Part shown: piece after piece, positions 15,108-39,380 of the stretch
Position numbering within the stretch: the first letter of the stretch is position 1
Layout: each line of letters opens with the position of its first letter
Assembly (NCBI GenBank): GCA_903835325.1
Contig: CAILMU010000061.1
Coordinates: 1 to 54,742 of the forward strand
Direction of reading: 5' to 3'
DNA: 54,742 bases
Origin: an uncultured Candidatus Micrarchaeota archaeon
Lineage (GTDB): Archaea; Micrarchaeota; Micrarchaeia; Anstonellales; Bilamarchaeaceae
Made by a program: the position numbers and the translations under genes
The notes under the pieces: generated by a model
The model's input: the letters and a program-made list of their open reading frames with translations, nothing else
The model's database searches: none
What the model was told of the DNA's origin: nothing

Positions 15108-15145
15108 CAGATAAGCCTTAATAACTATTAGGGTTAATTGATTTC
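15108..15145. promoter_or_regulatory. 38-bp divergent control spacer, copy A
   Basis: Sequence CAGATAAGCCTTAATAACTATTAGGGTTAATTGATTTC has two AT-rich boxes, each about 22-30 nt from one of the two ATGs. The 5' part is conserved with copy B. Confidence 0.45.
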
Positions 15146-19787: not shown

Positions 19788-19788
19788 C

Positions 19789-20775: not shown

Positions 20776-20778
20776 AGG

Positions 20779-21834: not shown

Positions 21835-21887
21835 AAGGATGGTGCTTGCGATTAGGATTGGCGGGATAAAGGAACAATACAAGCGGT

Positions 21888-22940: not shown

Positions 22941-25900
22941 TGAAAATACTGCCGATCGCGATTTCATTGATGGCTTTTCTATTGATTGCCGGCTGCCTCG
23001 AGATGCCGAAGAACTACTCCTGCTGCCTGAAGGTGAATGCGAGCGATCCGCAGGACAAGTGCGTGATGTACAATTCGTCAGACCCTGACCATCCGATAGA
23101 CCTTTCTGCCAACACGACAAGCTGCAATGTCACGGCAGGGACGTGCAACATAACCACCAAAGCAGGAGGCATAAACTTCGTGGGGGCCTTCCCAGTTATT
23201 ATCGCCGTCCCCTACCCCCCGGAGACAACCCTTCTGCAGATATGCACCGAAGCAGCGCCCCAGAAATGCATCGACCCGGAATGCAGCGCCATGGTCTGCG
23301 GGGATTTCGAATACACCCCGAAACTCGGGTCTTCTGCCGAAGAGATGGAGAAGGGCCTGCCGAACCCGCCGGAGACCAGCGCGGCGATCAACCTCTACCA
23401 CGGCCAGTGCAAGATCATGCCGATGGATTACAAGCTGGCCAATGTCTTCGAAAACTCGCCGAGCTACTTGAACCGCTTCAGGCTGGGGATAGGAAGCAGC
23501 TTCGAGGAGTATTCGGCGTATAGCACATTTTTCCCTACATCCGACAAGTTCTGCAATGCAAACCCACTGGGCACCATTGACCGCTATGAGAATTACCTCA
23601 CAGCTGCTGAAACAGTCTACGATCCGGTCAAGGAAATCAACGATTCATGCGTGAGCGACAAGAATCCGTCTGAAACGCCGCTTTCATTCAAGCTCGGCTC
23701 CCTGAATATCGGGGGCGACGGGAATCTGAAGACAGGGTATAAAAACGCGAATTTCATCCGGCAGGTCGTTTTCCCCTGGTACAGCGACCAGGCCGGGGGT
23801 GGAAATCACGCGACCCCATCGTCATCCAACGGCAAACCGCTCTATGCTATCGACACGCATGACTTCACCGGCGAGAAGATAGCGTACATGACCCCATATT
23901 CGAGGCCGGATACGAAATTCTATGGCACCGAGCTCCAAAAAGTCTACATGGACGGGGCGTTCGAGTTCGACTTGTGGGTCATAAGCGTCAACAACAAGCT
24001 GGACCAGCTCAATGTCGGCCCGGAGCCATCCATGCCGGCTGTCTGCAAGAATTGCTTCGATACCTGCAATGAATCGATAACATGCATGAAGTCATCCATA
24101 TACCAGCAGTATTGCCAGGATTATTGGGACAACAGCGATGCCTGGGCAGCCAAAAAGAAAGCGGCCGAGGATGCGGTGACAAAAGCCCTCGGACAGAAGC
24201 CGAAGGAGGCCCCCCGGGGCGCGTACGAGTGCGACCCCCTCAATCCTACAGAATGCATGTCCGCGCGCTGCGATACCCAGGACTACAGCAGGATAAATCT
24301 CTTCACACGCGACCAGGAGGTCGCACTGCCATGCAGCCATTCGAAAGTCAATGAGACCCGTTTCGGCGGAAACGTCACCGAATATGATGTCATCACCTGC
24401 AAGCCGTCGATAATGAATCAGGGGGCGGGGGGGAAGCCGGTTTTCAGCACAGCCAAAGCGGATTACCTGCAGGGCAATGGCGATTACGCCACTTCAGATG
24501 CCGGCGACATCGTGCTGTTCAGTTTCCCATTTTCCAAATACCCGCCCGACCATGTTGTGGCTCATACCGAAACAAACCTGTTCGGCACTTCCAGCGCCTC
24601 AGACGCCGGCTGTGTCGACCCCGCGAGGTGCGTGCAGGGGGCGTATCCGGCCGAGTACAAGACGGATGGGAAACCCGTGGTCGGCTACACCGTAATGAAC
24701 CGCGATGAGTTCCCCAAGACGATGCTTGCGCAGATCTGCAACCTCCAAGAAGGACAGGATTACCAGGTGGTGGAAGTTAATGACGATACCGCATGCGGGA
24801 TATCAGAGTATGCGCCCGAAAATGCCTGCCTCATCGTCAAGGACCCGAACTTGCCGGTTGGGAAGAACACGTGCAATATCATGTACGGCAACTGCGGCAC
24901 GGGCTTCCTTGCGACGGACGTCGGACCTCATGAGATGAATTACTATGGAGGGAATCCTTTGATCGTCTACAACGGGTTGGTGCGCACATTCGGAAAGAGC
25001 AGCATATTCATCCCGATATGGCATGGCGACCCTCATGGGCCCGGGTCGTACATCAATAACTATGGTTATGCGAACACGATTTTCCCCGAGGAGATCAGGC
25101 CCCAGTTCGTCAAAGACCTGGAAATCAAATACAACAATACCGGGTATGATTACGAATGCCTCAAGACCCCGAGTCCGGAGTCAGGACTCCCGCCCATCAC
25201 AGATTGCCTTGCAGGGATTTCGAACGCGCCCAAGGAGATAGTATTGATCAACGGATTCGGGACATGCAACTTCAACTATTCATCCCGGGAGCTGGAAACA
25301 GAATACCCGGTCACAAAAGAGTATGGATGGTGCGACAGCTGTTCGCTTGCGACCCTGGCATACCAGAAGGTCGAAAGGAGAGGCGTCCCATACGTGCCGC
25401 TGAATGAAGTCGGATTCAGCTCCATCAGCGGTTCTGCATCGGTGTACAAGATAGACCGCTCAAGCGGAACCCCGGCAACGCTGATAAGCCCGGAAGTGTT
25501 TGAAGAATCCCAGTTGAATGACCCATACCAAACTACCCCGATATGCTCCTGGAACCCCGGTTATCACATTGGGTCATCCATACCTTCAGGTCAGATGAAT
25601 TGCAGCAGCAACAGGGATTTCGAACCGTACCACAAGAACAACCCATTTTACATACAGGCCCCTAAGGAGGTGCCGGAAGCGACATACCTGAAGAACCAGA
25701 TGGCGCGCCTTCTCCAGTCCGGGGCGATCCCGATACTGGATCTGAGCGACAAATCTAATTGGGAACCTGGCGATGCGGGGATTGACTTGGGGAGTGCGTT
25801 GCAACAAGGGGTCACAGCGGTGCAGATCGCAGCCGGTGGAAAGGATCCGGTGGCGAAACTGGTCTATAATATCGGGGCGGTGATTGTGGTCGTCCAGGAT

Positions 25901-27961
25901 TCGAATTCGGTCCTTGGGCAGCCCAGCCGGGACGAATTGAAGAACAGGAGCGCCCTCGTCCATGCGACATGCCCGAGATGCCTCACAGCCGTCCATATAA
26001 GCAGCCTGAGCGGGACGGATAATGCGACCTTTGTCAACGAGGTGAGCGACATCTTCGGCGGCAAGGACTGTTTCGGGCTCGCAGGGAATCCGGTCGGAGG
26101 GCAATGCGACATGCAGGTCGCTGATGACCCTCTGCTTGGCGTGGACCTGGTGATCTTCGATTACGGGGTGCAGGAAAACCAAAAAGCGTATGCTGATGCG
26201 ACAAACCCGAAAAAGAAGGCGGATGCCGTCCTTCTGGACTTGGAGAACAGGGGATCCTACCTTCTTCAGAACTATAAGAAACCGTCGATAATCTACGATT
26301 TCTGGGTAGGGCAGGATATCCCCGGCAATGATGAATACCATGCCAAACTCGCATGGAATGATACCGAGGTCCGGCAATTGTTCAATGAGATAATCAACAA
26401 GGAGGACGGATTGGTGGCTGCCGGGATCAACGGGATATTCTATTCGCGCATCGCTGAATTCGGGCCGCTGGACTGGTCGAAACTGCAGGCGCAGGATGGA
26501 AGCATCCACGAGGCGATGTGCTCGCTCAGCAACGCATCCACGAGGATGGTGGCGCAGAAGCCGATGTCGTTCTTCAAGCGGGTATATGCCTCCGGCAACG
26601 TGAGCTGCGTGGATTGCACGGCCGACGACCTGTACAGCGGGAAATGCAATATGAACTGTTCGGATGGCACGCAATGCCTGCCTGGAGCGGATGTGAAGCC
26701 GCCTTACCTGGTCAGGTGTCCGGATGACGGCGTCCCTGAGCCATGCACGCCCTGCAACGAGACAGGGAAGACCTACACGTGCAGGGTGGAATACGACAAT
26801 GGCTCGGTGATCGTGCAGGATGTGGATTCGAAGGATATGAACACCGACTCATACGCCGATGTCATCTCAGGCCTCAATCCGCCGGATAAGTGCTGCATCA
26901 GCAAGGGCGGGACGAACTACACATATATGCAGCAGTCTGTGACGCTGAGCGTCGATGCGCCGATCGCATTCTCGAAGACCGGGGACACGAACATAGACTG
27001 CTCTTTCCCCTCGGCCTCATCGCAGAAACCCAGCGACTCGCAGTTCTGCAATGTGAAATCGATGGCTACCAATTACCGGGTCTCCTGCTTTGACAAGACC
27101 ACTTATGCGAACCTTAACAGCAAAGGCGCATTCAAAAACGGATTCGACTTCAATATCAACTACAACCAGCTTGGCGGCACCGGGAAGACCGGCGACTTGC
27201 CGGGGCAGGTCAGCCTCGGCAATATTTTCAAGAGCGGTTCTGGAAACCCCTCGGCCGGCGGCACCCCGAACGGAGTGATCACAAGCCCCGGGGCGGCGTT
27301 AGCGCAGGATCCCTGCCTTAGCAGCATGATATCCTCTTCGGGAGGCCATGTCAGGATAGGTTCAGGAAGCGGATATTCAGCGTCATCGCAACCGGTCGGA
27401 CCAGGAGGAGTGACCCCTGGCGGGACCGGGCAGACCGATTCCGGAACTGGTACGACGGAATGTCCGCCGGAGGTGTTCGCATGCTCAGCCGCGGCATCGT
27501 CTTTCGAGAAGGATGCCGAGATCAAGTGCAAAGCGTATATCGCCGATTGCAAGGTCCACCCGTACAACTACACCGCTACGGGGATATACCAGTATTGCTA
27601 TGGCGAGGACAGCTGCCAGCTGGCATATGACCGCTACTGCGCCAATGTCACGAAGAAATACGGCGCAGACGCATATTGCAACAACAATTGCTGCAAGAAG
27701 AGCTGTGAAACCTTCTGCTCAGGAGCCGGAGGAACGTCTTGCACGACCACCTGCCAGGACGGCCCGTGTCCGCCAGAAATGAAGCTTTGCCAATGCGCAG
27801 TGCAGACCGGGGGTAGTTGCGTCAAGGACTGCAAGGATGCGATCGGTTCGAGCAGTCCGATCGTCAACCCGCCATACCCATGGGCGCCTGGAGGCGCTCT
27901 TGCCGGCAAGAGCAACGATCCCTGCGGAGTCTATCAGAAAACAACGGAGACACCGAAATAG
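22940..27961 (+). CDS. module gene 7, copy A: giant Cys-rich, sequon-rich secreted or lipoprotein-like protein (1673 aa)
   Basis: TGATG overlap with gene 6. Signal peptide with lipobox-like LLIAGC. Five N-x-S/T sequons in the first 75 aa. Cys occurs throughout, with a very dense C-terminal Cys cluster and no C-terminal TM. Confidence 0.9.
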   Translation: MKILPIAISLMAFLLIAGCLEMPKNYSCCLKVNASDPQDKCVMYNSSDPDHPIDLSANTTSCNVTAGTCNITTKAGGINFVGAFPVIIAVPYPPETTLLQICTEAAPQKCIDPECSAMVCGDFEYTPKLGSSAEEMEKGLPNPPETSAAINLYHGQCKIMPMDYKLANVFENSPSYLNRFRLGIGSSFEEYSAYSTFFPTSDKFCNANPLGTIDRYENYLTAAETVYDPVKEINDSCVSDKNPSETPLSFKLGSLNIGGDGNLKTGYKNANFIRQVVFPWYSDQAGGGNHATPSSSNGKPLYAIDTHDFTGEKIAYMTPYSRPDTKFYGTELQKVYMDGAFEFDLWVISVNNKLDQLNVGPEPSMPAVCKNCFDTCNESITCMKSSIYQQYCQDYWDNSDAWAAKKKAAEDAVTKALGQKPKEAPRGAYECDPLNPTECMSARCDTQDYSRINLFTRDQEVALPCSHSKVNETRFGGNVTEYDVITCKPSIMNQGAGGKPVFSTAKADYLQGNGDYATSDAGDIVLFSFPFSKYPPDHVVAHTETNLFGTSSASDAGCVDPARCVQGAYPAEYKTDGKPVVGYTVMNRDEFPKTMLAQICNLQEGQDYQVVEVNDDTACGISEYAPENACLIVKDPNLPVGKNTCNIMYGNCGTGFLATDVGPHEMNYYGGNPLIVYNGLVRTFGKSSIFIPIWHGDPHGPGSYINNYGYANTIFPEEIRPQFVKDLEIKYNNTGYDYECLKTPSPESGLPPITDCLAGISNAPKEIVLINGFGTCNFNYSSRELETEYPVTKEYGWCDSCSLATLAYQKVERRGVPYVPLNEVGFSSISGSASVYKIDRSSGTPATLISPEVFEESQLNDPYQTTPICSWNPGYHIGSSIPSGQMNCSSNRDFEPYHKNNPFYIQAPKEVPEATYLKNQMARLLQSGAIPILDLSDKSNWEPGDAGIDLGSALQQGVTAVQIAAGGKDPVAKLVYNIGAVIVVVQDSNSVLGQPSRDELKNRSALVHATCPRCLTAVHISSLSGTDNATFVNEVSDIFGGKDCFGLAGNPVGGQCDMQVADDPLLGVDLVIFDYGVQENQKAYADATNPKKKADAVLLDLENRGSYLLQNYKKPSIIYDFWVGQDIPGNDEYHAKLAWNDTEVRQLFNEIINKEDGLVAAGINGIFYSRIAEFGPLDWSKLQAQDGSIHEAMCSLSNASTRMVAQKPMSFFKRVYASGNVSCVDCTADDLYSGKCNMNCSDGTQCLPGADVKPPYLVRCPDDGVPEPCTPCNETGKTYTCRVEYDNGSVIVQDVDSKDMNTDSYADVISGLNPPDKCCISKGGTNYTYMQQSVTLSVDAPIAFSKTGDTNIDCSFPSASSQKPSDSQFCNVKSMATNYRVSCFDKTTYANLNSKGAFKNGFDFNINYNQLGGTGKTGDLPGQVSLGNIFKSGSGNPSAGGTPNGVITSPGAALAQDPCLSSMISSSGGHVRIGSGSGYSASSQPVGPGGVTPGGTGQTDSGTGTTECPPEVFACSAAASSFEKDAEIKCKAYIADCKVHPYNYTATGIYQYCYGEDSCQLAYDRYCANVTKKYGADAYCNNNCCKKSCETFCSGAGGTSCTTTCQDGPCPPEMKLCQCAVQTGGSCVKDCKDAIGSSSPIVNPPYPWAPGGALAGKSNDPCGVYQKTTETPK

Positions 27962-28230: not shown

Positions 28231-31200
28231 TCATTCCTTCTCGCTCTCAGGCGGGCGTATAGGGGACGGAGGCCTAAGCTCCTGGGAAGGGAGGGAAGGA
28301 GCCTTGTATGTCTCGAATCCAGGCATCTCCAGCCGGAGATTGGTGCCCGGCGCATGCGAAGGCGCATCCGGGGTCCGGATGTATTCCTGCTTCATGCTCT
28401 CGAAACCGGCCATCTCGGCCTCTGGACGCTTCCTCATCTCCATGAAATGCTTCTCCCACTCAGGAGGTTCGCCCGGGGCGCCCCCCGCCGGCGCGCCTGC
28501 CGGGGCATGGATCTCCGGCTCCAGGGGCTTGCCGGTGGTCATGACGAAATTCGTGAATCCTATCGCGAGATCGAATGAATTTATCCTGCGGTACATCCCT
28601 TCCTCCTCGGCCTGGCGCTGGTCGGAGGCTCTCAGCTCTGCGGTCGCGTGGGCGAGCTCTGCGTTCGCTGATTCGTGCATGTCGAGCAGGCCTATATTGG
28701 CCGGTTCATGGTGGTTCACATAACCGAGGACAGCGACCGCGTCGTTGGCCGCTCCGCTCACTATCTTCCCCACATCCAGGTCAGGCGGAGCCGAATAAAG
28801 GGTGGGGGTTTCCAGCGCGCGCTCGGTCGCACCATGGTGGTCCCCTGCGGCAATGAACAGGTCGCCCAGATTGGTCACGAAAGAGCCCCCGGCGACACCC
28901 GGGCCCATCTCGGGTTCTCCCCTGATGAAATGCTCGCCGACCCAGTTCTTTGAATCTGTATCGGTCCGCTGGGCGAGCTCATAGCCCGAGGACATGCCCC
29001 GCGCTGGATCGCCGGGATCGGCCAGCAATCTCCTTGCGCTCTGCTCGAGCACGGCCTGGTTTATCTCCGGATCCTTGGCGCCGGCCTTCTCGACCGCCTC
29101 GTGTATCTTGCGCTCCTCCTCTGCCCTGCCGCTTGTGCCCCTGTCTTCGGCGATCCCCGCCAGATCCTTCTGGAAATTGGCCAGGGCCGGGTGCGCCTTG
29201 TAATAATCGTCCATCACATTCTCCATGAACATGCCCCTGAACTCCGCGTTCGCATAGTTCGCGTTCTGATGCGCCTCGATGACCTGGTCGCGTTGCTTGT
29301 TCGCGCTTTCGAAGAATCCGCCCTGCCCGAGCCAGCAATCCTTGGGCAGGATTTCGCGGGCGAACGCCATCGCCTCGTTCTCCTTGGCTCCTGTGAGCTC
29401 CTTCCCGGTCCTGCCGTCGCGGACTATCGGCCCGCCCTCGGACTGCTCGAACCTCAGCTGATCTGTGCCCAAGCGCTTGATTCTATCCGGGTCCTTCGCG
29501 ATATCGATCCCGATATCATTGACGCCCTGGTTCGGAACGTTCGCCAGAAGTATAGCTGCCTGCGCATCGCTCAACCTCTCGCCGGTGTGCGCATTCGATA
29601 TCGATCCATCCGCCTCGCGCCTGAATGTGTTGGCCAGAATCTTCTCTTCGGCAGTGCCGGGGGTCTCCATCCGTGCGATCAGGCGGTCGTCGCTTATGAC
29701 CAGCAGCCCGGTTTTATCGAATGGATCGGTCCTGCCGAGTGAGACTTCGATGCCCTGCGCGGTCAAGGCATCGCTGCGCACGCCCAGGCGGCCGTCACGC
29801 GTGAATGCGACTCCGAGCCCGAGGTGCTCCTTATCGGCCAAGTCCATCGATATCCCGGTGTGGGCTGCGTATGCGCCGACCAGGTCTCCGACGGTTATCT
29901 CCTTGCGCGCAACCCCCGCCGGGCCTGCGGCCTCGGCATGGAGCGCGGCCGAGAGGGTGAGCGGATTGGATTCTGTGCCGACGATATCGCGCTTCACGTC
30001 TATCTGCAGCGAGTTCAGGGCAGTGACCCTTCCGGCGGAATCCCGCTCGACGCTGTATGACATGCCTCCGCTGGTGGTCACCCGGTTCATATTCGGATCC
30101 GAGACCATGTCCACTTTCTGGTGCGGATCGATCACGCCCATTATCTGCGCGAATTCCTTGCTTCCTACAGCAGACCGCTGCTGCTCGGTCACCAGGACTT
30201 TCGAGATATTGCCGGATTCATCGCGCCCGAGCGTCATGAGCTTTCCGTCCGGCATGCCGACCATCACGGCATTGCCCGATGAATCGCGTATGACGCCGTA
30301 TGTCTTGCCGTCCGATGAGGTATATGTCGATGGGAACGGCCCGCCCTGGGGCGGTTGCGATTCCATGGCTTCGCGGACTCCGGCCGGGAGCCTGCCGTAC
30401 TGCGGGCTGCCGCCTTCGATGAGTTTGGCATTGGTTTCGACATATCCGTGTACCATCATGTTGCCCTTGTCATCGAACTTGACCTTCCCATTTTCTACCA
30501 ATGGGATGGCTTCCACGGTCCTGCCATCCAATGTCGGCATGAGTATCTGCTTCCCTTCTCTCAGCGCCGGCCCCACAGCATCGGCGCTCAGCGCGCTTTC
30601 GGGTATCTGGTTCCCGAGCTTCTTGAACTCGTCCGTCCCGGCCATTATCGGCCTGGGGACGAGACGCTGGTTGCCGAAAGGGTCGGTTATCACGTCCTTC
30701 ATCTGGCCGTTCACTTCCATGGCGACGATTTTGTTGTCCTTAAGTTCGGCCCTGGCACCGCTCGAGCTCATGGCTATCCCGGTGATGGAGATAGGCGCTC
30801 CATCCTTCGGCAGGGAGCGCGAATCAAGGTATACGATCGTCCCGCCGACATTGAGCTGTACATAATTGGGGACATTCCCTTTCGCGCCTGGCGGGCCTGG
30901 TTCGGTCACGATGGCGCCGTTTTTCACCTGCACTATCTGGCCGTTGATGAACGCGAATCCGGTCTTGGCCTTGGCATCGCCGCCTTCGAGGAAAAGGCCC
31001 TGCACCTGCTTGCCCTCCATATTCAGGCTCATCTTCTGCGCATTGGACAGGTCGACATTCGTCTTGGGAGAGAGGGCGCGGACATTGAGCGCCGAATCGA
31101 GCGCCGCAGCTTTCCTCTCCTCGGCTTTGCGCATCTCATTGGCGTTAGCGACCGAGCCCTTGAACATGTTATCGAAAAGGAGGCCCAGGATCGGAACATA

Positions 31201-32568
31201 ATGCAGGAATTTCTTTATCGCTTCGTGGTCAGACCTGTCTCCGGTGGAGACAACACCTCCCTTGGCGTCGCGCGTCTCCTTCCCGCTCCCAGCGCCGAAC
31301 GGAACGAAAGCCGGGAGGAGGAACTGGTAGAGGTTCGATGTCCGAAGCGCCAGGACGAGCATGTTGCCAAGAGCGCTCCATGCATCCGCGCCTGGCTGGG
31401 CTTTCTGGGGCGGCGCGCTCGCAGTAAGGACCATGTTCCTGCCCAAGCCAACGAAAGGCACGACCCCTCCGACGATCCCGCTCACGCTCCATTGGGAAAG
31501 CCCTTTCGGGCCCCCTTCACCCGCGAACGGTTTATCATACCATGCCACTTTCGATTTGGCTGCCGGCGTAACTCCAGTCGTTGACCTCTGGACCTGGCCT
31601 ATCTTGCCTCCTTTGGCGCCGGCTGGGGGCGCTCCGCCTTTGGCAGGACCTGCCGGCGCCCCGCCGCCTTCGGCTTTTGCTTCGCCCTCCTTCGCCTCGC
31701 CTTCGCCTCCGCCCGCGAACTCCAACGAAGTGCGGGCGTATGCCATGATGATAGAGCCCCAGTTGATTGACTTGCCGCGCATGCGCGCCTCATAGCGGAC
31801 GTGCTGGCCAATACGCGGGGTCGAAAGGTCGAAGGCGCCGAACGGGTTCCGCCCGGAGACCTGCAACGCACCGACGAGCAGGGCGAGGATTATCAGGAAC
31901 GGAAGGCAGAATTCCACAGAGCCCTTGTCCTTCGCCTGCGGGGGCTGGGGGCAGTAAGGCACGGTGGCGACTGCCGGCAGGAGCGAATACGTCTCCGGCA
32001 TGAGTATCTGCCCCGGGACGAAATTCCCCGGAGGCTGCGGGGCGGCGCTCAGGCTGGTCGGGATGGCGGCGTTCTTGGATGTGATATTCAGCATGTCAAG
32101 GCACTCCTGGAACCCGCATCCGTTGCTGAAAGGGCAGTAGAAGAAGATGAATCTCTGGCATATGGCGTTCTGGGCGTTGTCATATGGCGAAAGGTTGAAG
32201 GTCGCGATGCCGTTTTCGTCGGTGTAAAGGAGCCAGAGCTCTTTGTTATACGGGACATAAGCCAGTATTGTCGTGTTCTCCACCATCTGCCGGGTTGGAT
32301 TCGCGCTCGAGTTGGTATAATATAGCGCGACCTGCACGACATGATGCTGGCTGTCCACGAAAGCGGTCATGCCCGTATCCTGGTAGCTGGCGATGGAGAG
32401 GCAGCTCGGGCATTCGCCGGAATTGAAAATCTGCGCATAGTTGCCGGCGCCGGATTGGAAGACGAGCCCCTGGGGGACGAGCGGGTATGCGGATGCTGCC
32501 TGGACCATGAGGAGGATGAAAAGAAAGGGCGCTTTCGATGCCGAGCTCAGCTCCATAAGGATAAACAT
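28231..32568 (-). CDS. module gene 0, copy B: giant membrane-anchored protein (1445 aa)
   Basis: Same architecture as 11337-15107: GECPSC, CPFSNGCGFQEC, TM helix FCLPFLIILALLVGALQV, then PRIGQHVRYEARMRGK. It has an extra Gly/Ala/Lys/Glu low-complexity stretch. Confidence 0.9.
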   Translation of the reverse strand: MFILMELSSASKAPFLFILLMVQAASAYPLVPQGLVFQSGAGNYAQIFNSGECPSCLSIASYQDTGMTAFVDSQHHVVQVALYYTNSSANPTRQMVENTTILAYVPYNKELWLLYTDENGIATFNLSPYDNAQNAICQRFIFFYCPFSNGCGFQECLDMLNITSKNAAIPTSLSAAPQPPGNFVPGQILMPETYSLLPAVATVPYCPQPPQAKDKGSVEFCLPFLIILALLVGALQVSGRNPFGAFDLSTPRIGQHVRYEARMRGKSINWGSIIMAYARTSLEFAGGGEGEAKEGEAKAEGGGAPAGPAKGGAPPAGAKGGKIGQVQRSTTGVTPAAKSKVAWYDKPFAGEGGPKGLSQWSVSGIVGGVVPFVGLGRNMVLTASAPPQKAQPGADAWSALGNMLVLALRTSNLYQFLLPAFVPFGAGSGKETRDAKGGVVSTGDRSDHEAIKKFLHYVPILGLLFDNMFKGSVANANEMRKAEERKAAALDSALNVRALSPKTNVDLSNAQKMSLNMEGKQVQGLFLEGGDAKAKTGFAFINGQIVQVKNGAIVTEPGPPGAKGNVPNYVQLNVGGTIVYLDSRSLPKDGAPISITGIAMSSSGARAELKDNKIVAMEVNGQMKDVITDPFGNQRLVPRPIMAGTDEFKKLGNQIPESALSADAVGPALREGKQILMPTLDGRTVEAIPLVENGKVKFDDKGNMMVHGYVETNAKLIEGGSPQYGRLPAGVREAMESQPPQGGPFPSTYTSSDGKTYGVIRDSSGNAVMVGMPDGKLMTLGRDESGNISKVLVTEQQRSAVGSKEFAQIMGVIDPHQKVDMVSDPNMNRVTTSGGMSYSVERDSAGRVTALNSLQIDVKRDIVGTESNPLTLSAALHAEAAGPAGVARKEITVGDLVGAYAAHTGISMDLADKEHLGLGVAFTRDGRLGVRSDALTAQGIEVSLGRTDPFDKTGLLVISDDRLIARMETPGTAEEKILANTFRREADGSISNAHTGERLSDAQAAILLANVPNQGVNDIGIDIAKDPDRIKRLGTDQLRFEQSEGGPIVRDGRTGKELTGAKENEAMAFAREILPKDCWLGQGGFFESANKQRDQVIEAHQNANYANAEFRGMFMENVMDDYYKAHPALANFQKDLAGIAEDRGTSGRAEEERKIHEAVEKAGAKDPEINQAVLEQSARRLLADPGDPARGMSSGYELAQRTDTDSKNWVGEHFIRGEPEMGPGVAGGSFVTNLGDLFIAAGDHHGATERALETPTLYSAPPDLDVGKIVSGAANDAVAVLGYVNHHEPANIGLLDMHESANAELAHATAELRASDQRQAEEEGMYRRINSFDLAIGFTNFVMTTGKPLEPEIHAPAGAPAGGAPGEPPEWEKHFMEMRKRPEAEMAGFESMKQEYIRTPDAPSHAPGTNLRLEMPGFETYKAPSLPSQELRPPSPIRPPESEKE

Positions 32569-32606
32569 CAGTTAAGCCTTTAAAAATGGCAATGATAAAT
32601 ACCAAT
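32569..32606. promoter_or_regulatory. 38-bp divergent control spacer, copy B
   Basis: Sequence CAGTTAAGCCTTTAAAAATGGCAATGATAAATACCAAT. TTTAAAAA lies about 22-30 nt upstream of the ATG at 32607. TATTTATC on the minus strand lies about 25-31 nt upstream of the ATG at 32568. Confidence 0.5.
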
Positions 32607-33854
32607 ATGCGCTGGGCCATCATCCTGCTGCTCTTATTCGGAGCTTCATTCGCAGCCGGCACTGACGTCTTTCTCCTCATCTTCCCTTTTGCTGTCATCA
32701 TAGTCGCGATAATCCTCGCCCTTCTGCGCATGGCGGCGGACACATTCTCCCTGCCAGGGCTATCGGCGTATGTCAAGACAGAGCTGGGCGAGCTTTTCGC
32801 AGGCGTGATACTCGCCCTCATAGTATATGCGTTCATCATCAGCTCGGACCAGCTCTCGACACTGCTAACCGGGCAGAGCGCGACCATGCTCGCCGAGAGC
32901 CATTTCGAGAGCCTCGTCACGCAGTATTATATCCCCACATTCCTGGGGATAATCCGGATAGGCACCCAGCTCAAGGCGATGATATCGTTCAGCACCAACC
33001 AGGCCATCCCGGCGCTATGGATGTCGTGGGGCTGGACGATAAGCAGCTATGGTGGCCTTTCTCCGCTCCTCTCGAGCCTGACCATGGCCGTCCAAGGGCT
33101 CTCTAATAGTATACTATTGTATGAATCGGTGCTTCTTCTCCTGCGGTTCTCCAGCGCGATCATTCCGACGATAGTCCTGCCTTTGGCCCTTTCCCTGAGG
33201 CTGATACCCTTCACGCGCCAGGCAGGAACAGCCCTGACTGCGATCTGCATATCGGTCCTTGTCATCTTCCCATGGTCGGTGGTGTTCGTGGACCAAATCC
33301 ACAGCCAGGACGTGGTCCCATACCCTAACCCGGTGGCGGGTGGCGCGGTCGGGAGGATAATCTCGAATCTCGGGATCAACTTCCCATCATCGGAAGTGCT
33401 CGAGTTCCTCTGCCAGAACCATGCGTTCCGCTTCTTCCTCCAGCTCAACGAGCTCGGGTGGGTGGGGGTCCTCTGCCCGCCGACTTGCCTAGCGATAGCC
33501 GCTAGCGTATGCGCCGGGACAGGCCCGGGTTATGCCGCCTGCTTCGGAGCGGCTTTCTGGGCATGCTTCGAGACCTGCTTCTGGCTGATAGTCCTGGTGG
33601 ACTATCCGGTGACCGTCCTTGGCGCCCAGCTGATTTACAACACGATAGGGACCTCTTTCATCAATGTCAGCTCTTCCCAGGCAGGGTCGATATTCGATGC
33701 CATGTATCCCTTCATGGCGGCGGTAAACAATCTCGTCATGATGGGCTACGTGGATGCGATCATAATAGGCGTGTTCACGATAGTCGGGGCAAGGGCAGTC
33801 TCGGCGGCGCTTGGCGGCGAGTGGTCCATGATACGTTTCCAGAGGCTGGTCTGA
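32607..33854 (+). CDS. module gene 1, copy B: polytopic membrane protein (415 aa; 422 aa if started at 32586)
   Basis: MRWAIILLLLFG aligns with the copy-A start MRWQMLILILFS. This choice gives the same 38-bp spacer as copy A. C-terminal tail is ALGGEWSMIRFQRLV. Confidence 0.88.
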   Translation: MRWAIILLLLFGASFAAGTDVFLLIFPFAVIIVAIILALLRMAADTFSLPGLSAYVKTELGELFAGVILALIVYAFIISSDQLSTLLTGQSATMLAESHFESLVTQYYIPTFLGIIRIGTQLKAMISFSTNQAIPALWMSWGWTISSYGGLSPLLSSLTMAVQGLSNSILLYESVLLLLRFSSAIIPTIVLPLALSLRLIPFTRQAGTALTAICISVLVIFPWSVVFVDQIHSQDVVPYPNPVAGGAVGRIISNLGINFPSSEVLEFLCQNHAFRFFLQLNELGWVGVLCPPTCLAIAASVCAGTGPGYAACFGAAFWACFETCFWLIVLVDYPVTVLGAQLIYNTIGTSFINVSSSQAGSIFDAMYPFMAAVNNLVMMGYVDAIIIGVFTIVGARAVSAALGGEWSMIRFQRLV

Positions 33855-34951
33855 TGGATGGAAAAACACGCGGTGCGCATTACCGGCCCTGGAAAAAAAA
33901 CAGTGAAACCATCGCACCCGAATCCGGAGCGCCGCTCTTTTCATTGAAGATCCTCGCATCGCTCATACTGCTCATCTCATGCTCCTTCGCCGTTTCATGC
34001 GTCCAAAATGCCGGGCAGAAGGTCATGGACGGCGCCGGCCCCATCATCATCGTCGCCGCTTTCCTGAGCGTCGCGGTCATCGCGATCGCCTACATGTACG
34101 GCTCTGCCATGGGGAACGCCCATTCAATCGTCTTCGCCAAAGACGAGCTATATCACCTAGGCTTCTCGCTCGTGCTGGTGCTGTCCATCAGCGGGATAAT
34201 CGCCTCGTCGTGCCTCGTCACCGGATATATATTCGACATCGCTTTCTCTCAGCTCGGGGGCGGGCTTTACAACAGCTGCGGCGGATCCGGCGCTGAGCTC
34301 GGGGACCTCCAGTCCTGCACCATATCCCAGGCGATAAGCGATGCCGAGATGATGACGACGCAGTTCACCGCCATGGACATAAACAGCATGATGAGCGCGA
34401 ACTGGGCCTACACATACGCAGTGCCTTTCAGCGATGTGGTCACCACGGTCGCATCGGGATACAAGAAAACGTACGCCATGCAGTACGAGACGCTGACGAA
34501 CACGTTCGTCCTGCCTGCCCTGGTGAGCCTCAAGATGCAGAAGGTGCTTGTCGGCCTGCTGAGCAGGTACTCCATCGAGATCATCCTTCCCCTCGGATTC
34601 ATATTCAGGATGGTGCCCCCTGTGCGCCGTTTCGGGAATTTCCTGCTCGCCCTATCGCTGGGTCTCTATATCGTGATACCTTTCTTCACGACCTTCAATT
34701 ATCTGATGTACGATGCGGTGAATTGCGCCTGCAACGACTATTCCTCCATCCTCCATGACACCGTGCTCGACAACAACGGCGCGCAGTACGGGTTCGGTAT
34801 TCACGAATGCGGGGTCGCATGCAGCAGCGCCAACGGATTCTGGACCGTTGCCCGGCTGATTCCGCAGGCTTTCTTCCTGCCGAACCTGACGCTCGCCCTT
34901 TTTGTCACCTTCCTTTCAGCTATCAATAAAGCCCTGAGCGTGATCGGATGA
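33854..34951 (+). CDS. module gene 2, copy B (365 aa)
   Basis: TGATG overlap with gene 1. The MDGK... start matches MDGI... in copy A. Motif YMYGSAMGNAHSIVFAKDELYHL. The protein ends ...INKALSVIG. Confidence 0.85.
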   Translation: MDGKTRGAHYRPWKKNSETIAPESGAPLFSLKILASLILLISCSFAVSCVQNAGQKVMDGAGPIIIVAAFLSVAVIAIAYMYGSAMGNAHSIVFAKDELYHLGFSLVLVLSISGIIASSCLVTGYIFDIAFSQLGGGLYNSCGGSGAELGDLQSCTISQAISDAEMMTTQFTAMDINSMMSANWAYTYAVPFSDVVTTVASGYKKTYAMQYETLTNTFVLPALVSLKMQKVLVGLLSRYSIEIILPLGFIFRMVPPVRRFGNFLLALSLGLYIVIPFFTTFNYLMYDAVNCACNDYSSILHDTVLDNNGAQYGFGIHECGVACSSANGFWTVARLIPQAFFLPNLTLALFVTFLSAINKALSVIG

Positions 34952-37272
34952 AGAATACCGCGCTGTTCTGCCTGATAGTCCTCAGCGCCATCTCCAGCGC
35001 CCAGGTCTCGAGCGCGATGCTGAGCGAAGCAGGCCAGAGCAGTAGCGTGGTCCATGAGCTCTTCACGAACTGGCAGGCCCTCTCGGTCATGGCGATAATG
35101 CTCTCGGCCATGCTTGTCGCGATCGCTTATATGCTCGGCATAGGTTTCGAGATCCCGGGCCTAAGGGCATGGGCCGGGACCGAGCTCGGCCAGGTGATAG
35201 CGAGCGTCTTGATACTCGTAACGATGATGGCCGTGCTGGCTATGATAGATGCCGAGGTATCGCTCCTGGTCAACAGCCAGGTGGATGGGATGGTCAGCTG
35301 CAAGATAGCTGGTGAACCTTGCCTCAAGGACGCGGCGACATTCTACCTCAACGGGTATATCGATTCCGCCAAGGCATCCATCCGCAACCTCCTGATAGGC
35401 AACATGGATGTCTCCAACGCCGCCGCGCAGCGGAGTTTCTACAGCTGCTATTCCGCCATCCTGCCTCTCCCATGCCTGCAGTACTCTTCCGGGTGGTCGC
35501 ATGGGACAGTGGCCGTGCTCCAGCTGGACACGAACCAGGTGCTCTACGAATATTACAGCTCGATGCTGTCCTCGATGGAAGCGCAGAAGGCGTTCGTCGA
35601 GGACGTCTGCTTCAAGATCGCGCCTTTCATCCTGGCGACAGGCATCGTGGCAAGGACGTTCTTCGCCACCCGGAAGCTCGGCGGGCTGCTTATCGCCGGG
35701 GCGCTGGCCCTCATGTTCGTCCTTCCGATGATGTACATCTTCGATTGGATGACCCTGAATTCGCAGTTCACGAGCGACAAGACGTACGGGGACCAGGCGA
35801 GCCTCTGCCCCGACGAATGCCAGCTCACACCGCCCCTGGTGTACGATTCGAAACAGCCGGATGTCACTTATAGTCAGAAGGACCTCTACAACATGTTCTA
35901 CTATGCCTACAAGGACCCCCTGATAGCCAAGAACCTGACCACCGGCAAGCTCTTATCATACGACTGGACGACCAAGCCTGTTTCTATCGGACCGGCGCTT
36001 GTCCCGCCGGATCCCATCCTGGTGTCGTGCGAGGCCAGCTCTTATGTCGCCATCGACAGCCTCGGGAGCGATTACAAAGGCAAATGCGCAGCGATGATAA
36101 ACAACTCGCTCGTCGTGGACACATGCGGGAGCGTGAACCTTTATGCGGAAGTCGACAGCGTGAAGGCATCATTAAATCCAGGCCAGCCGGGAACCGTCGA
36201 GAAGACGAATGTATATGTAGGGAACACCTCGATAGCATGCCCGTATGTGTGCAGGGAGCTCCCGTACCCTTACACGAACCCGTTCTGCGAACCGCCGATC
36301 ATCCAGAGGGCGTGCGCGGCGATGCCGCCCGTATGCAAGATCAGCCGCAAGGCGAACGCGAAGACACTCGACCAGTTCATGGAAGAGAACCTCAGCTGCG
36401 TGCAGGAATGCAAGATAGTCCCTCCATTGAAAGACGACTGCAACAACGCCAGCTGCCTCGACTCGAGGTTCGACTGCAGGATATCCAAGAGGGATGACCT
36501 GGGTTTCAGAACGCCGCTGCTCGCCTCGTCAGCTGAAGGCGGGGCGATCGCGGACGAGGTGAAAAGGTGCGACTTGGCCAAGGACTGCCCGGCAGACCTC
36601 AACGCGAGCAAATCCTGCGTCTATGTCCTTCCTGCCGATACCAAGAGCTGCGCGGACTTGTGCCCGAAGTGCCCTGCAGAATGCAGGATAGCAGGGGACG
36701 ATCCGACAGACCCGAAGAAGACGCTGCCGAATGACTGCTACAGCGGAGGCCAGCTGATAACCGAGTGCAGCGAGGCGAACTGCCCTGAATCCTGCAAGAT
36801 CCCCATAGAAAGGATAATACGCCTCGATCCAGGATATAAGGCATGCAACAGCACCGCGGGGAACATCTGCCCCTGGTCATGCAGGGTCGGGGGCGTGGTC
36901 CCGGTCCCCGACGGATGCGACAAGACGGCCTGCGACCTGACGGTCTGCTCAGGGGCCTACAAGGAGACGGTCCCTTCGTCCTCATGCCAGAAATGCCTCG
37001 ATGTCGATGCCAACTTCCAGTTCGACCCGCCTGTGATGACCAACTGCGCTGATTTTTGCGCCGCCCCTAAGAATCCGGCGGAGCCGTCCACAGCTCCGCT
37101 CACCATGGAGGGTTTCGTGGGCGGGCCAGATTACCGCAACATAGCCCAGCTGCTGGTGCAGGCTTATCTGCTGCCATTGTTCAATTTCACGGTCGCGATA
37201 ATGTTCATCCAATCTTTCTCAGGCATGCTCGGAGGGGATATCGAGATCCCGGGGATAACCAAGGTGCTATGA
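34948..37272 (+). CDS. module gene 3, copy B (774 aa) with Cys-rich ectodomain
   Basis: ATGA overlap with gene 2. Motif YMLGIGFEIPGLRAWAGTELGQ. C-terminal tail is MLGGDIEIPGITKVL. Confidence 0.9.
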   Translation: MKNTALFCLIVLSAISSAQVSSAMLSEAGQSSSVVHELFTNWQALSVMAIMLSAMLVAIAYMLGIGFEIPGLRAWAGTELGQVIASVLILVTMMAVLAMIDAEVSLLVNSQVDGMVSCKIAGEPCLKDAATFYLNGYIDSAKASIRNLLIGNMDVSNAAAQRSFYSCYSAILPLPCLQYSSGWSHGTVAVLQLDTNQVLYEYYSSMLSSMEAQKAFVEDVCFKIAPFILATGIVARTFFATRKLGGLLIAGALALMFVLPMMYIFDWMTLNSQFTSDKTYGDQASLCPDECQLTPPLVYDSKQPDVTYSQKDLYNMFYYAYKDPLIAKNLTTGKLLSYDWTTKPVSIGPALVPPDPILVSCEASSYVAIDSLGSDYKGKCAAMINNSLVVDTCGSVNLYAEVDSVKASLNPGQPGTVEKTNVYVGNTSIACPYVCRELPYPYTNPFCEPPIIQRACAAMPPVCKISRKANAKTLDQFMEENLSCVQECKIVPPLKDDCNNASCLDSRFDCRISKRDDLGFRTPLLASSAEGGAIADEVKRCDLAKDCPADLNASKSCVYVLPADTKSCADLCPKCPAECRIAGDDPTDPKKTLPNDCYSGGQLITECSEANCPESCKIPIERIIRLDPGYKACNSTAGNICPWSCRVGGVVPVPDGCDKTACDLTVCSGAYKETVPSSSCQKCLDVDANFQFDPPVMTNCADFCAAPKNPAEPSTAPLTMEGFVGGPDYRNIAQLLVQAYLLPLFNFTVAIMFIQSFSGMLGGDIEIPGITKVL

Positions 37273-37273
37273 C

Positions 37274-38287
37274 ATGAACAGGACACTGATAGGTATTTTG
37301 GCCGTGCTCACCTTGACCACCATGTCGCATGCCGCTGGCTGGCAGGGGCTGGCCGGTATCGCGGTCATCACATCGGCATGCATGCTCGCCCTCATCTACA
37401 TGATAGGCTTCGGGTTCGGCATCAACGAGCTGATGATGACATCGAAGGAGGAGGCGTACCAGCTCGTGGTGGTCATGGCCCTGATCGGCGGATTCGTCCT
37501 GATCGAGACCGGGGGCGACGCGCTCTTCGGCGCGATAATCGGCCAGGGGACCGGCATGCAGATGATGGCGACTTCGATGACGGCCTCGAAGATCGCGGTC
37601 CTTGGCGGGATATTCGGCAATATCGCCGACGCGGAGAGCCGCATAGCCAAACAGGGGACGATGACGCTCAACTGCAACATCCTAGGCGTAGGCCAGGTGG
37701 TTAGCGGATGCGGGGGCTACAGCATGGTGAGCCCGGCCCTCTCAGGTGTCGAGGCCACGGTGGGCCTCGCTATAGCTGAGCTCAGCTCGCTGACACGGCT
37801 GATGGGGATAGGAATGGCGAACTCGTTTTCGCTGCTGCTGCCGATCGGCATAATATTCCGCACATTCAAGCTCACGCGGGGCGCTGGGGGGCTGATAATC
37901 GGGGTGGCGGTCGCGCTCTATTTCGTGCTTCCGCTGTCCATGATATCCATGTGGCAGATAGCGGACCAGTTCAAGGATACCCGTTATGTCGGAACAGCTC
38001 CTTACATAGAGGTGCCCGACTGCGAGCCTGCCCAGACGAGCGACGTCTCATCATCGGAAGAAGGCGGGGTCGCCCAGGGCATGGGCTTCCCATCCAGCAA
38101 CGCAGGCAAGGCAATGGGCATCTTCATGCGTGTCATCGACGCGGTGCCGTTCTATCTTTTCCCGGCGCTGATATATGGCATCATAACGCCTGCGATAGCG
38201 CTCCTGATAACCGTCGCGAGCATCAGGGTGCTGAGCGCCCTCGGAGGCGCAGAGGTGGACGTGAGCGTCCTTTCCAGGGTGATATGA
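37274..38287 (+). CDS. module gene 4, copy B (337 aa)
   Basis: Motifs YMIGFGFGINELMMTSKEEAYQL and LLPIGIIFRTFKLTRGAGG. C-terminal tail is LGGAEVDVSVLSRVI. Confidence 0.9.
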   Translation: MNRTLIGILAVLTLTTMSHAAGWQGLAGIAVITSACMLALIYMIGFGFGINELMMTSKEEAYQLVVVMALIGGFVLIETGGDALFGAIIGQGTGMQMMATSMTASKIAVLGGIFGNIADAESRIAKQGTMTLNCNILGVGQVVSGCGGYSMVSPALSGVEATVGLAIAELSSLTRLMGIGMANSFSLLLPIGIIFRTFKLTRGAGGLIIGVAVALYFVLPLSMISMWQIADQFKDTRYVGTAPYIEVPDCEPAQTSDVSSSEEGGVAQGMGFPSSNAGKAMGIFMRVIDAVPFYLFPALIYGIITPAIALLITVASIRVLSALGGAEVDVSVLSRVI

Positions 38288-38338
38288 ATAATAGACAACA
38301 TATGCACCACCGCTTTCAACGTCTTCGTAGATTCCCAG

Positions 38339-39367: not shown

Positions 39368-39380
39368 GCATGGTGTTGAA

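Follow-up and report, generated by a model that had tools for sequence, protein, structure and literature searches.

A giant single-pass membrane protein encoded divergently from a six-paralogue operon in Micrarchaeota, a probable part of an undescribed cell-envelope machine

Two giant genes and their divergent operons

The window, which is the whole 54,742-nucleotide stretch of micrarchaeal DNA that was analysed, contains twice an eight-gene unit consisting of a giant gene and a divergent operon. Giant gene copy B, identified by its ORF, its translation and its homologues, occupies positions 28231-32568 of the minus strand and encodes 1445 aa, exactly where the first-pass annotation had placed it. 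Copy A (11337-15107, minus strand) encodes 1256 aa, with the transmembrane (TM) helix and the juxtamembrane motif at 14283-14432. The giant protein is a real, very large membrane protein, and the two copies are paralogues. BLASTP of B against A gave 36% identity across the first 660 aa (4e-101) and 26% identity over the approximately 650 C-terminal residues (4e-37). The motifs quoted in the annotation were recovered from both copies, namely GECPSC, LW(L/V)LYTDE.G.AT.NLS, F..YCPFSNGCG..(E/Q)C, the Pro-rich PYCP.PP and the basic PRI-x4-RYE.RMRGK, as was the conserved island, which reads FLEGGDAKAKTGFAFINGQI in copy B and FLQGGDEKEKTGFIYVNGQV in copy A. The true start is likely the second Met, at 32556 in copy B (Met5) and at 15095 in copy A, because it lies about 24 nt from a shared AT-rich TATA-like element.

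Operon B (32607-45526, plus strand) encodes six paralogous 5-TM proteins, p1 (32607-33854), p2 (33854-34951), p3 (34948-37272), p4 (37274-38287), p5 (38339-39367) and p6 (39381-40424), followed by a Cys-rich predicted lipoprotein of 1700 aa (40424-45526), all on the plus strand and with stops and starts that overlap or abut. Operon A (15146-27961, plus strand) likewise encodes six paralogues and a Cys-rich predicted lipoprotein of 1673 aa. The divergent promoter region of copy B (32569-32606) contains one AT-rich TTTAAAAA element at 32577-32584. One paralogue carries a Cys-rich ectodomain of about 450 aa, and the AF2 model of p4 reached a pLDDT of 86 and a pTM of 0.78. Conserved C-terminal tails had been claimed for all six paralogues; the GG(D/E)...(K/R)hh tail is present on five, while paralogue 2 ends in a conserved NKALRVIG. 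Across the phylum these tails hardly vary, and the helix order of the AF2 model, the positive-inside pattern of the loops and a Cys-rich insert following TM4 predict a cytoplasmic location for them.

Copy B starts with a signal peptide (residues 1-27, 32488-32568, minus strand, as are all following segments) that ends in AASA, has a hydrophobic peak of 1.79 and corresponds to the aligned N-terminal hydrophobic leaders of 31 homologues. The ectodomain (residues 28-216, 31921-32487), delimited by alignments and by family-wide Cys and sequon counts, contains the conserved cysteines C53, C56, C137, C145, C151, C156 and C206 and the conserved sequon N86. It is followed by the single strong TM helix (residues 217-238, 31855-31920), which starts with the invariant C221-L-P. 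As the annotation had stated, each copy has one such helix, with a Kyte-Doolittle 19-residue mean of 2.4 in B and 2.2 in A. The basic juxtamembrane segment GRNPFGAFDLSTPRIGQHVRYEARMRGK (residues 239-266, 31771-31854) is better conserved than any other part of the family. In the 31-sequence alignment the invariant residues were concentrated in the helix (C221, P223, L231 and G233) and in this segment (G239, N241, P242, F243, F246, Y259 and R264).

A low-complexity linker rich in Gly, Ala, Pro, Glu and Lys (residues 283-345, 31534-31722) was recognized by composition and entropy and had an AF2 pLDDT below 30. Weaker hydrophobic segments were found in both copies, as had been reported (Kyte-Doolittle 1.0-1.6); those at residues 357-422 of copy B (31303-31500) scored 1.3-1.5, which is under the TM threshold, and are absent from most homologues. 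For the central region (residues 510-1060, 29389-31041) AF2 predicts many beta-hairpins, with strands at a pLDDT of 50-81 in parts; this region has a folded-like charge-hydropathy margin and contains a few YD-like x-R-D-x-x-G motifs. The acidic C-terminal region (residues 1061-1340, 28549-29388), conserved with copy A and with protein P0002, appears mainly helical in the low-confidence AF2 secondary structure. The tail (residues 1341-1445, 28234-28548) is Pro-rich, charged and, judged by its composition, probably disordered.

Family distribution and gene neighbourhood

Homologues of the giant protein were confined to MAGs labelled Micrarchaeota, Micrarchaeia or Iainarchaeum, or to unlabelled metagenome contigs, and no match in the genome scans was labelled as a cultivated acidophilic micrarchaeon. 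As the scans used exact peptide patterns, the prevalence in the phylum is a lower bound. Conservation across the phylum is limited to about 270 aa, from the ectodomain through the TM helix to the basic GRNPF...RYxARxRG segment. Among copies A, B and locus L001 the identities were 51-55% for the N-terminal domain, 49-65% for the paralogues and 33-37% for the C-region.

A Pfam domain was found in none of 28 members of the giant family, and the whole cluster had no match in Pfam, NCBIfam, the PDB, PHROGs or PADLOC. An anti-phage defence or phage protein was rejected, as neither PADLOC nor PHROGs gave a match and a scan of viral contigs turned up no relative. A membrane-anchored P-loop NTPase of the FtsK, VirD4 or EccC type was rejected as well, since Walker A was absent from B, A and the L001 protein and Pfam gave no match; the pattern occurred in 2 of 23 family members, each time as a chance-like match. 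An archaeosortase substrate of the PGF-CTERM type was likewise rejected, because the TM helix lies at residues 217-238 of 1445 with about 1200 residues beyond it and NCBIfam gave no match.

The back-to-back arrangement of giant gene and operon that the annotation had described is conserved. Six divergent paralogue genes in fixed order were present in 32 of 35 giant loci with at least 8 kb of upstream sequence, and at least one was present in 14 of 18 loci with shorter flanks. With this degree of conservation the giant gene is not missing from most homologous operons, which the annotation had named as a refutation of its reading. Approached from the paralogue side, all four contexts contained the giant gene. 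Three to seven giant genes were 'orphans' with no operon nearby. The divergent intergenic spacers measure 17-97 bp and contain conserved TATA-like boxes. From this organisation the giant protein probably belongs to an undescribed cell-envelope machine. For a more specific reading, that it is a type-I single-pass component of an undescribed envelope cluster specific to Micrarchaeota and is docked via its conserved core to the paralogues, we see about an even chance.

The giant gene is also linked to the genes behind it. A PadR-family regulator gene (10927-11340, minus strand; Pfam PadR, 4.9e-9) follows copy A, its start overlapping the giant stop by 4 nt, and this gene order is repeated in relatives; at locus L002 the overlap is 1 nt. 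AAA_18 and ScpB genes trail the giant gene within 2.5 kb and on the same strand in 29 of 36 loci, with PadR detected between in 21 of the 36. This downstream linkage, which the first-pass annotation had missed, is about as tight as that to the operon. Linkage alone therefore does not assign the giant gene to a paralogue complex, the more so as locus L030 has kept the AAA_18/ScpB unit and lacks the operon upstream. The giant protein might instead work with this co-directional unit, for example as a membrane-tethered sensor or anchor controlling PadR, or as a tether for ScpB/SMC-related chromosome handling. We consider this unlikely: copy B is accompanied by its operon but by none of PadR, AAA_18 and ScpB, which means that the duplicated unit is the giant gene plus the operon. 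ScpB and AAA_18 have housekeeping functions, and their position beside the giant gene may be a legacy of ancestral gene order. Both explanations could hold at once.

The C-region and the topology of the giant protein

Within the cluster, the approximately 1000-aa part predicted to be cytoplasmic evolves fastest. A search of 1.84 billion representative proteins found no homologue beyond the small clade to which it belongs, and between clades no similarity was detectable even profile against profile (probability 0.2%). Its length varies in the family from about 800 to 1800 aa. These findings, together with the low-complexity linker, the Pro-rich tail and the low pLDDT, would fit a region that is mostly a spacer or bristle, under little constraint, in part disordered and lacking a specific partner; function would then reside in the ectodomain, TM helix and juxtamembrane core. 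Such a spacer seems distinctly improbable, as within a clade the C-region aligns end to end (B and L035 share 44% identity over 1170 aa, and jackhmmer joined 20 main-clade sequences over about 900 positions), while the charge-hydropathy margins of residues 350-1000 resemble those of folded control proteins. The low pLDDT of the C-region model (mean 39.6) is expected from an alignment of only 3 sequences.

The annotation had proposed a bitopic protein with the ectodomain outside and the bulk inside, and contrasts across the TM helix in about 58 homologous loci agree with it. Per 100 aa the ectodomain of the family contains 4.2 Cys and the C-region 0.17. Sequons numbered 79 in the ectodomain where 34 were expected (2.3-fold, P about 4e-11), and 83 in the C-region where 97 were expected (0.85 times). 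The corresponding ratio for the Cys-rich exported proteins encoded in the same clusters was 1.37. Lys and Arg together average 0.22 in the 15 aa preceding the helix and 2.0 in the 15 aa beyond it. A second hydrophobic segment with a Kyte-Doolittle score of at least 1.6 was absent from 17 of 23 tabulated homologues. We infer from these signals that an N-out/C-in single-pass topology is supported across the family. Essentially one Cys had been reported for the long region, and each copy has exactly one there. Taken as a sign of a cytoplasmic location, this Cys-poverty turned out to be weak evidence, since cytoplasmic enzymes encoded in the window contain 0.5-1.8% Cys compared with 0.08-0.1% in the C-region, and since the Micrarchaeota S-layer protein is likewise sulphur-poor (10.1101/2021.04.28.441871).

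A long region placed outside the cell, as a fast-evolving RHS/YD-like surface fibre or adhesin for host contact, would accord with this S-layer-like Cys-poverty, with the few YD-like motifs, with the fast divergence typical of surface proteins and with the top Foldseek matches of the C-region model (Rhs, teneurin and OspA beta-hairpin proteins, E about 1e-3), but it is highly improbable given TM-scores of 0.05-0.08 on a model with a mean pLDDT of 39.6, the sequon deficit compared with the ectodomain and the exported proteins, and a signal peptide plus one TM helix, which with the Lys+Arg asymmetry (0.2 versus 2.0) puts the C-terminus inside. On sequence criteria, membership of the RHS/YD-repeat family was rejected, as Pfam RHS_repeat was unmatched in B, A and P0002 (hmmscan, E <=10) and in 28 family members, and the DPxGL autoproteolysis motif, which in RHS proteins precedes a variable toxin domain, was absent from B, A and the L001 protein (regex DP.G[LWFIV]). 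As to a beta-cocoon shell fold, Rhs cores headed the Foldseek matches (E 1e-3), at a TM-score of about 0.07 on the low-confidence model. The likeness to RHS/YD proteins and teneurins consists of the predicted beta-hairpin-rich centre, a few x-(R/F)-D-x-x-G motifs whose spacing is YD-like, and this first rank of Rhs in Foldseek. The giant protein differs from them in its N-proximal TM anchor and in the predicted cytoplasmic location of its long region.

Proposed role and comparison with known systems

We infer complex formation, a docking site and co-regulation for the preferred reading, in which the giant protein is docked via its core to the paralogues. A cleaved signal peptide would export the ectodomain of about 190 aa, which is probably disulfide-bonded and N-glycosylated. 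The conserved core, that is, the TM helix and the strongly basic juxtamembrane segment of about 30 aa (GRNPF...RYxARxRG), would dock the protein onto a hetero-oligomer of the six divergently encoded 5-TM paralogues, at the cytoplasmic membrane face, where the acidic, near-invariant paralogue tails are predicted to emerge. The flexible Gly/Ala/Pro-rich linker would lead to the cytoplasmic module of about 1000 aa, part beta-hairpin-rich and part helical, which may serve as a lineage-specific platform or adaptor rather than as a conserved tail-binding partner. The annotation had suggested that the protein, whose bulk it placed in the cytoplasm, could be a scaffold or partner for the paralogue tails. 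The bulk is a poor candidate, because the tails are near-invariant across the phylum while the bulk has no detectable similarity between clades; any contact of the giant protein with the tails is more likely to be made by the conserved basic juxtamembrane segment. The two units would probably be co-regulated from the very short divergent promoter region, perhaps via the PadR regulator, whose gene would be transcribed together with that of the giant protein.

The mycobacterial Mce systems consist of six tandem paralogues, MceA-F, which form a heterohexamer, and of accessory membrane proteins. The likeness is one of gene organisation only, with six tandem membrane-anchored paralogues in a fixed, conserved order and large accessory proteins, and this layout suggests a hetero-oligomeric envelope assembly. 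In contrast to Mce, the cluster contains no MCE domain, YrbE-type permease or MkL ATPase (no Pfam or NCBIfam match), and its paralogues are helical 5-TM proteins. An Mce-type transporter was therefore rejected, the six-tandem-paralogue layout alone being shared.

Like VirB6/TrbL, the polytopic subunits of type IV secretion systems, the operon proteins are multi-pass helical inner-membrane proteins with long helices extending past the bilayer and are encoded beside very large envelope proteins, but ATPase or other secretion-system genes are absent from the cluster. The sole TrbL-related match was a TrbL-labelled phage protein in BFVD (E 0.64, TM 0.24). Identity with VirB6/TrbL was rejected, as Pfam gave no match, the PDB profile search was empty and Foldseek of the confident paralogue model against the PDB found no fold match (best E 0.15, TM <0.2).

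The giant protein shares with SLP_Mh, the S-layer protein of Micrarchaeota, a large size, Cys-poverty, a lineage-typical occurrence and an association with the envelope. SLP_Mh matches PF05123 and carries heavy glycosylation from end to end (10.1101/2021.04.28.441871), whereas the giant protein has no S-layer domain and shows no sequon enrichment in its long region. An archaeal S-layer protein (PF05123 and related) was rejected on the missing Pfam match and the C-region sequon ratio.

DPANN archaea such as the Micrarchaeota are tiny, symbiotic and attached to host cells, and to our knowledge the molecules mediating this contact are almost entirely unknown. A more far-reaching reading, which we regard as speculative and rather improbable, is that the eight-gene cluster represents a new type of archaeal envelope-spanning machine, which could be a host-contact or docking apparatus of Micrarchaeota. 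The six 5-TM paralogues would then form a hetero-oligomeric ring, and further components would be the giant Cys-rich lipoprotein and the giant bitopic protein, whose hypervariable cytoplasmic domain would be a lineage-specific platform receiving or processing what crosses the envelope. Such an apparatus could be likened to the 21-nm barrel that cryo-ET has shown under the S-layer of the micrarchaeon ARM-1 (PMC11329633). If the cluster encodes an envelope complex, it provides concrete candidates for unidentified micrarchaeal envelope densities in cryo-ET and proteomics, and narrows multimer modelling to seven or eight defined chains. Should its role be another, it is still a large, conserved and unnamed part of archaeal cell biology. 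Its genes resemble no described family, and the cluster occurs in more than 50 Micrarchaeota loci with a fixed gene order, near-invariant peptide tails and two giant proteins, predicted to lie one on each side of the membrane.

The duplicated eight-gene unit

In the window each giant gene is transcribed divergently from a compact operon whose genes abut or overlap at their stop and start codons. This operon encodes, in order, six membrane proteins that are homologous to one another (p1 to p6), of which p3 contains a Cys-rich insertion of about 450 aa, and a Cys-rich protein. The gene of the latter is the last one and lies on the forward strand at 22940-27961 in operon A (1673 aa) and at 40424-45526 in operon B (1700 aa). 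Both proteins have a lipobox-like leader ending in LIAGC or SLYGC, contain 4.6 to 4.9% Cys and numerous sequons, and are probably giant extracellular lipoproteins. The mechanical ORF list extended three genes too far into the preceding gene (33509-34951, 17028-19787 and 39743-45526); p2 of operon B probably starts at 33854, p3 of operon A at 17442 and the lipoprotein gene of operon B at 40424.

The whole unit of giant, p1 to p6 and Cys-rich lipoprotein is duplicated in tandem (11337-27961 and 28231-45526). For every gene of the unit, copy B resembled the homologous loci L001 and L035 more closely than it resembled copy A, and its GC content was higher (0.584 compared with 0.551 in copy A, and 0.608 in giant B), so that either the duplication is old or copy B was acquired elsewhere. 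Two giant genes also occur in MAG195 and binchicken_co334_56, and a tandem pair is present in locus L028.

Genes flanking the two units encode an adenylosuccinate synthetase fragment, ScpB, an AAA_18 kinase-like protein, a HEPN/nucleotidyltransferase pair and AbiEii. The HEPN/nucleotidyltransferase pair (9883-10861, reverse strand), with a DUF7342 wHTH N-terminus in the nucleotidyltransferase, forms an insertion between AAA_18 and PadR, and the AbiEii toxin-like gene (46123-46788, forward strand) follows cluster B; these neighbours of the clusters are of the toxin-antitoxin or defence type. Two further giant ORFs lack a signal peptide: one at 1577-6928 on the forward strand (1783 aa, 0.17% Cys) and one at 48061-54741 on the reverse strand (at least 2226 aa, 0.09% Cys), which runs past the window end. 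Neither matched Pfam or showed similarity to the focal giant or to the other.

The giant proteins and their predicted topology

The gene of giant B occupies positions 28231-32568 of the reverse strand and encodes 1445 aa; that of giant A (11337-15107, reverse strand) encodes 1256 aa. The ORF of giant B was found exactly where the first-pass annotation had placed it, and all motifs quoted there, including the conserved island FLEGGDAKAKTGFAFINGQI/FLQGGDEKEKTGFIYVNGQV, could be read in the translations of the two copies. BLASTP aligned the giants with 36% identity across the first 660 residues (4e-101) and with 26% identity across about 650 C-terminal residues (4e-37); they are paralogues. The spacing to AT-rich elements suggests that Met5 is the true start of both (32556 and 15095), and spacing likewise points to MRW at 32607 as the start of p1 in operon B.

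Apart from the N-terminal leader, each copy has one strong TM helix (Kyte-Doolittle 19-residue mean of 2.4 in B and 2.2 in A) and a few weaker hydrophobic segments with scores of 1.0 to 1.6. The C-terminal region of either giant contains a single Cys. The first-pass annotation had taken this low Cys content as a sign of a cytoplasmic location. The observation was correct, but the argument is weak by itself, because the cytoplasmic enzymes of the window contain 0.5 to 1.8% Cys, compared with 0.08 to 0.1% in the C-region, and because an exported S-layer protein of Micrarchaeota is likewise sulphur-poor (10.1101/2021.04.28.441871).

Topology was assessed across the giant homologues as a family. 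The ectodomain contained 4.2 Cys per 100 aa and the C-region 0.17. In the ectodomain 79 sequons were observed with 34 expected (2.3-fold, Poisson P about 4e-11); the C-region had 83 with 97 expected (0.85-fold), and the exported, Cys-rich giants encoded in these clusters had 1.37 times the expectation. Sequon N86 is conserved. Lys and Arg together averaged 0.22 within the 15 residues that precede the TM helix, as against 2.0 within the 15 that follow, and 17 of the 23 tabulated homologues had no further segment with a Kyte-Doolittle score of 1.6 or more. Taken together, the Cys, sequon, charge and hydropathy signals support the proposed orientation, in which the N-terminus would be outside and the C-terminus inside the cell.

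Relatives and gene linkage

Among 5.8 billion proteins a word-indexed search found only one homologue of the full-length giant outside the window, P0002 (1464 aa, 37% identity). Its contig has the layout seen in the window, with archaeal housekeeping neighbours (exosome subunits, SBDS, L37ae, Pcc1 and prefoldin). A profile of the membrane paralogues retrieved 50 proteins, and all named ones were labelled Candidatus Micrarchaeota; their contigs carry ScpB, AAA_18, PadR and the giant gene, followed by divergent p1 to p6 and the Cys-rich giant. The giants of these contigs matched the window copies by BLASTP only in the first 270 residues or so (32 to 35% identity). Pattern-based scans with an N-terminal profile yielded 29 loci in GTDB species genomes, mostly labelled Micrarchaeota, Micrarchaeia or Iainarchaeum and otherwise plain "archaeon", 23 more in JGI metagenomes, and no relative on viral contigs. 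A protein search with the 31-sequence N-domain profile returned only two partial proteins. The closer relatives L035 and L036 both have a divergent giant gene, the former encoding a protein with 44% identity to giant B over 1170 aa.

Linkage was determined by our own ORF and HMM analysis of all fetched loci, which comprised 58 giant-gene loci. Where at least 8 kb of upstream sequence was available (35 loci), 32 loci showed the six paralogue genes in divergent orientation and constant order, and the other three had none of them; with shorter flanks, 14 of 18 loci had at least one. The back-to-back arrangement noted in the window is thus conserved, and the condition that the first-pass annotation had named as refuting its idea, a giant gene missing from most homologous operons, does not hold. 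Giants lacking an upstream paralogue operon were those of L030, L040 and L060 (also L015, L029, L031 and L050); in the 31-sequence alignment A4 the motif GRNPF...RY is retained in L015, L029 and L030 and partly degenerate in L031. On the best-supported interpretation, p1 to p6 would build an envelope complex specific to Micrarchaeota, and the giant would be its single-pass subunit or a close partner of it.

The linkage of the giant to AAA_18 and ScpB is about as strong as that to the operon: both genes were found downstream on the same strand in 29 of 36 loci, with an intervening PadR gene detected in 21. In the window PadR (10927-11340, reverse strand) comes directly after giant A and has a 4-nt overlap with its stop; in L001 (14398-14733) and L002 (1583-1888) the PadR gene likewise comes directly after the giant gene and overlaps it. 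The giant might accordingly function with PadR, AAA_18 and ScpB instead of the operon. In L030 these three genes are kept downstream and no operon is present upstream; copy B of the window argues against this, as it has its own operon but lacks PadR, AAA_18 and ScpB.

The spacers between the giant gene and p1 were 17 to 97 bp long. In the main clade, as distinct from the clade of the window, they contain a pair of conserved AT-rich boxes, AAATTTATAAATTT and AAACGTTTAAATGTATAAG, as opposed to a single AT-rich element in each spacer of window copies A and B. In L008, L010, L013, L017, L019, L028 and L033 (about 9860-9960 in locus coordinates), AAACGTTTAAATGTATAAG is strongly conserved some 25 to 30 nt upstream of p1, and the palindrome AAATTTATAAATTT is found close to the giant gene. 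Because they are kept in species whose proteins are only 30 to 60% identical, these boxes may be promoter or regulator (PadR?) sites.

Conserved core, C-region and predicted structure

In the 31-sequence alignment the ectodomain cysteines, the TM helix (C221-L-P...L231, G233) and the segment G239-R-N-P-F-x-x-F...Y259...R264 were invariant. Among A, B and L001, identities were 49 to 65% for p1 to p6, 51 to 55% for the giant N-domain, 47 to 58% for the Cys-rich lipoprotein and only 33 to 37% for the giant C-region. Twenty main-clade C-regions were linked by jackhmmer over about 900 positions, and neither HMMER nor a profile-profile comparison (probability 0.2%) connected them to those of the window clade. 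When 1.84 billion representatives were searched in full by HMMER with a C-region profile, only the three input proteins were recovered. An apparently nearly invariant G401 in a 28-sequence alignment was rejected as an alignment artefact in Gly-rich sequence.

The paralogue tails, in contrast to the giant C-region as the least conserved part of the cluster, are near-invariant and paralogue-specific, with a fixed p1 to p6 order in 23 operon copies from 22 loci. Their signatures are LGGEWYMAGIQRLI (p1), NKALRVIG without a GG(D/E) motif (p2), LGGDIEIPGISKVF (p3), AGAEVDVSAISRFV (p4), YGEEIDLSRITQLV (p5) and LGGDTYELTKMVSKVI (p6). The AF2 model of p4 of operon B (37274-38287, forward strand; 53-sequence alignment) was confident (pLDDT 86, pTM 0.78). 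It shows a hydrophobic leader followed by five helices that are 27 to 48 residues long, two of them reaching 48; its outer tip carries a beta-hairpin, and the C-terminal tail is a short helix. A fold search with this model gave no significant match in PDB (best E 0.15) or BFVD. Helix order, basic loops and the position of the p3 Cys-rich insert would place the tails in the cytoplasm.

The first-pass annotation had suggested that the giant, with its bulk in the cytoplasm, could be a scaffold or partner for these tails. The results support that annotation on topology and on linkage, but the proposed contact would be better placed at the juxtamembrane segment, because the part of the cluster that varies most is an improbable binding site for a near-invariant ligand. 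The giant would then be anchored via its conserved ectodomain, TM helix and basic juxtamembrane core, the core lying at the membrane face shared with the acidic tails, and a fast-diverging cytoplasmic module of about 1000 aa would follow behind a flexible linker. The tails could equally well mediate contacts among the paralogues themselves. A supposed charge-swap co-variation of the giant RY(Q/E) position with the p1 tail was abandoned, since L011 and L023 have E there without a change in the tail.

The bulk of the giant could also be a low-constraint spacer. Its charge-hydropathy margins at residues of about 350 to 1000 were like those of folded control proteins, and linker 283-345 and the last 100 residues or so look disordered. 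The AF2 model of the giant B C-region (3-sequence alignment) had a mean pLDDT of 39.6, with some beta-hairpin stretches at 50 to 81 and a helical end. Foldseek ranked Rhs, teneurin and OspA first (TM-scores of about 0.07), hits that are unreliable because of the low pLDDT of the query model. A few YD-like x-R-D-x-x-G motifs are present; Pfam RHS_repeat did not match the giants even at E ≤10, and neither a DPxGL nor a Walker A motif was found. An extracellular RHS-like fibre is the least likely of the rival readings, in view of the topology signals.

No protein of either eight-gene unit matched Pfam, NCBIfam, PHROGs or PADLOC, 28 giant homologues scanned for known domains gave no match, and PDB sequence and profile searches (queries B, A3, A4 and A7) returned nothing. 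The membership tests against known systems that had a clear outcome were all negative. Mce systems also have six tandem paralogues, and the likeness is one of organisation only; those of the C-region hairpins to Rhs proteins and of the operon-protein helices to VirB6/TrbL are weak and unreliable. Identity with the S-layer protein was rejected from the literature, in which that of Micrarchaeota is a different protein, and no description of this cluster was found in the searchable literature. The function proposed for the cluster is inferred only from anatomy and gene linkage. Cryo-ET of micrarchaeon ARM-1 revealed an unidentified 21-nm barrel-shaped complex in the symbiont envelope that docks host nanotubes (PMC11329633), and it is a matter of speculation that this barrel might be the product of the cluster.
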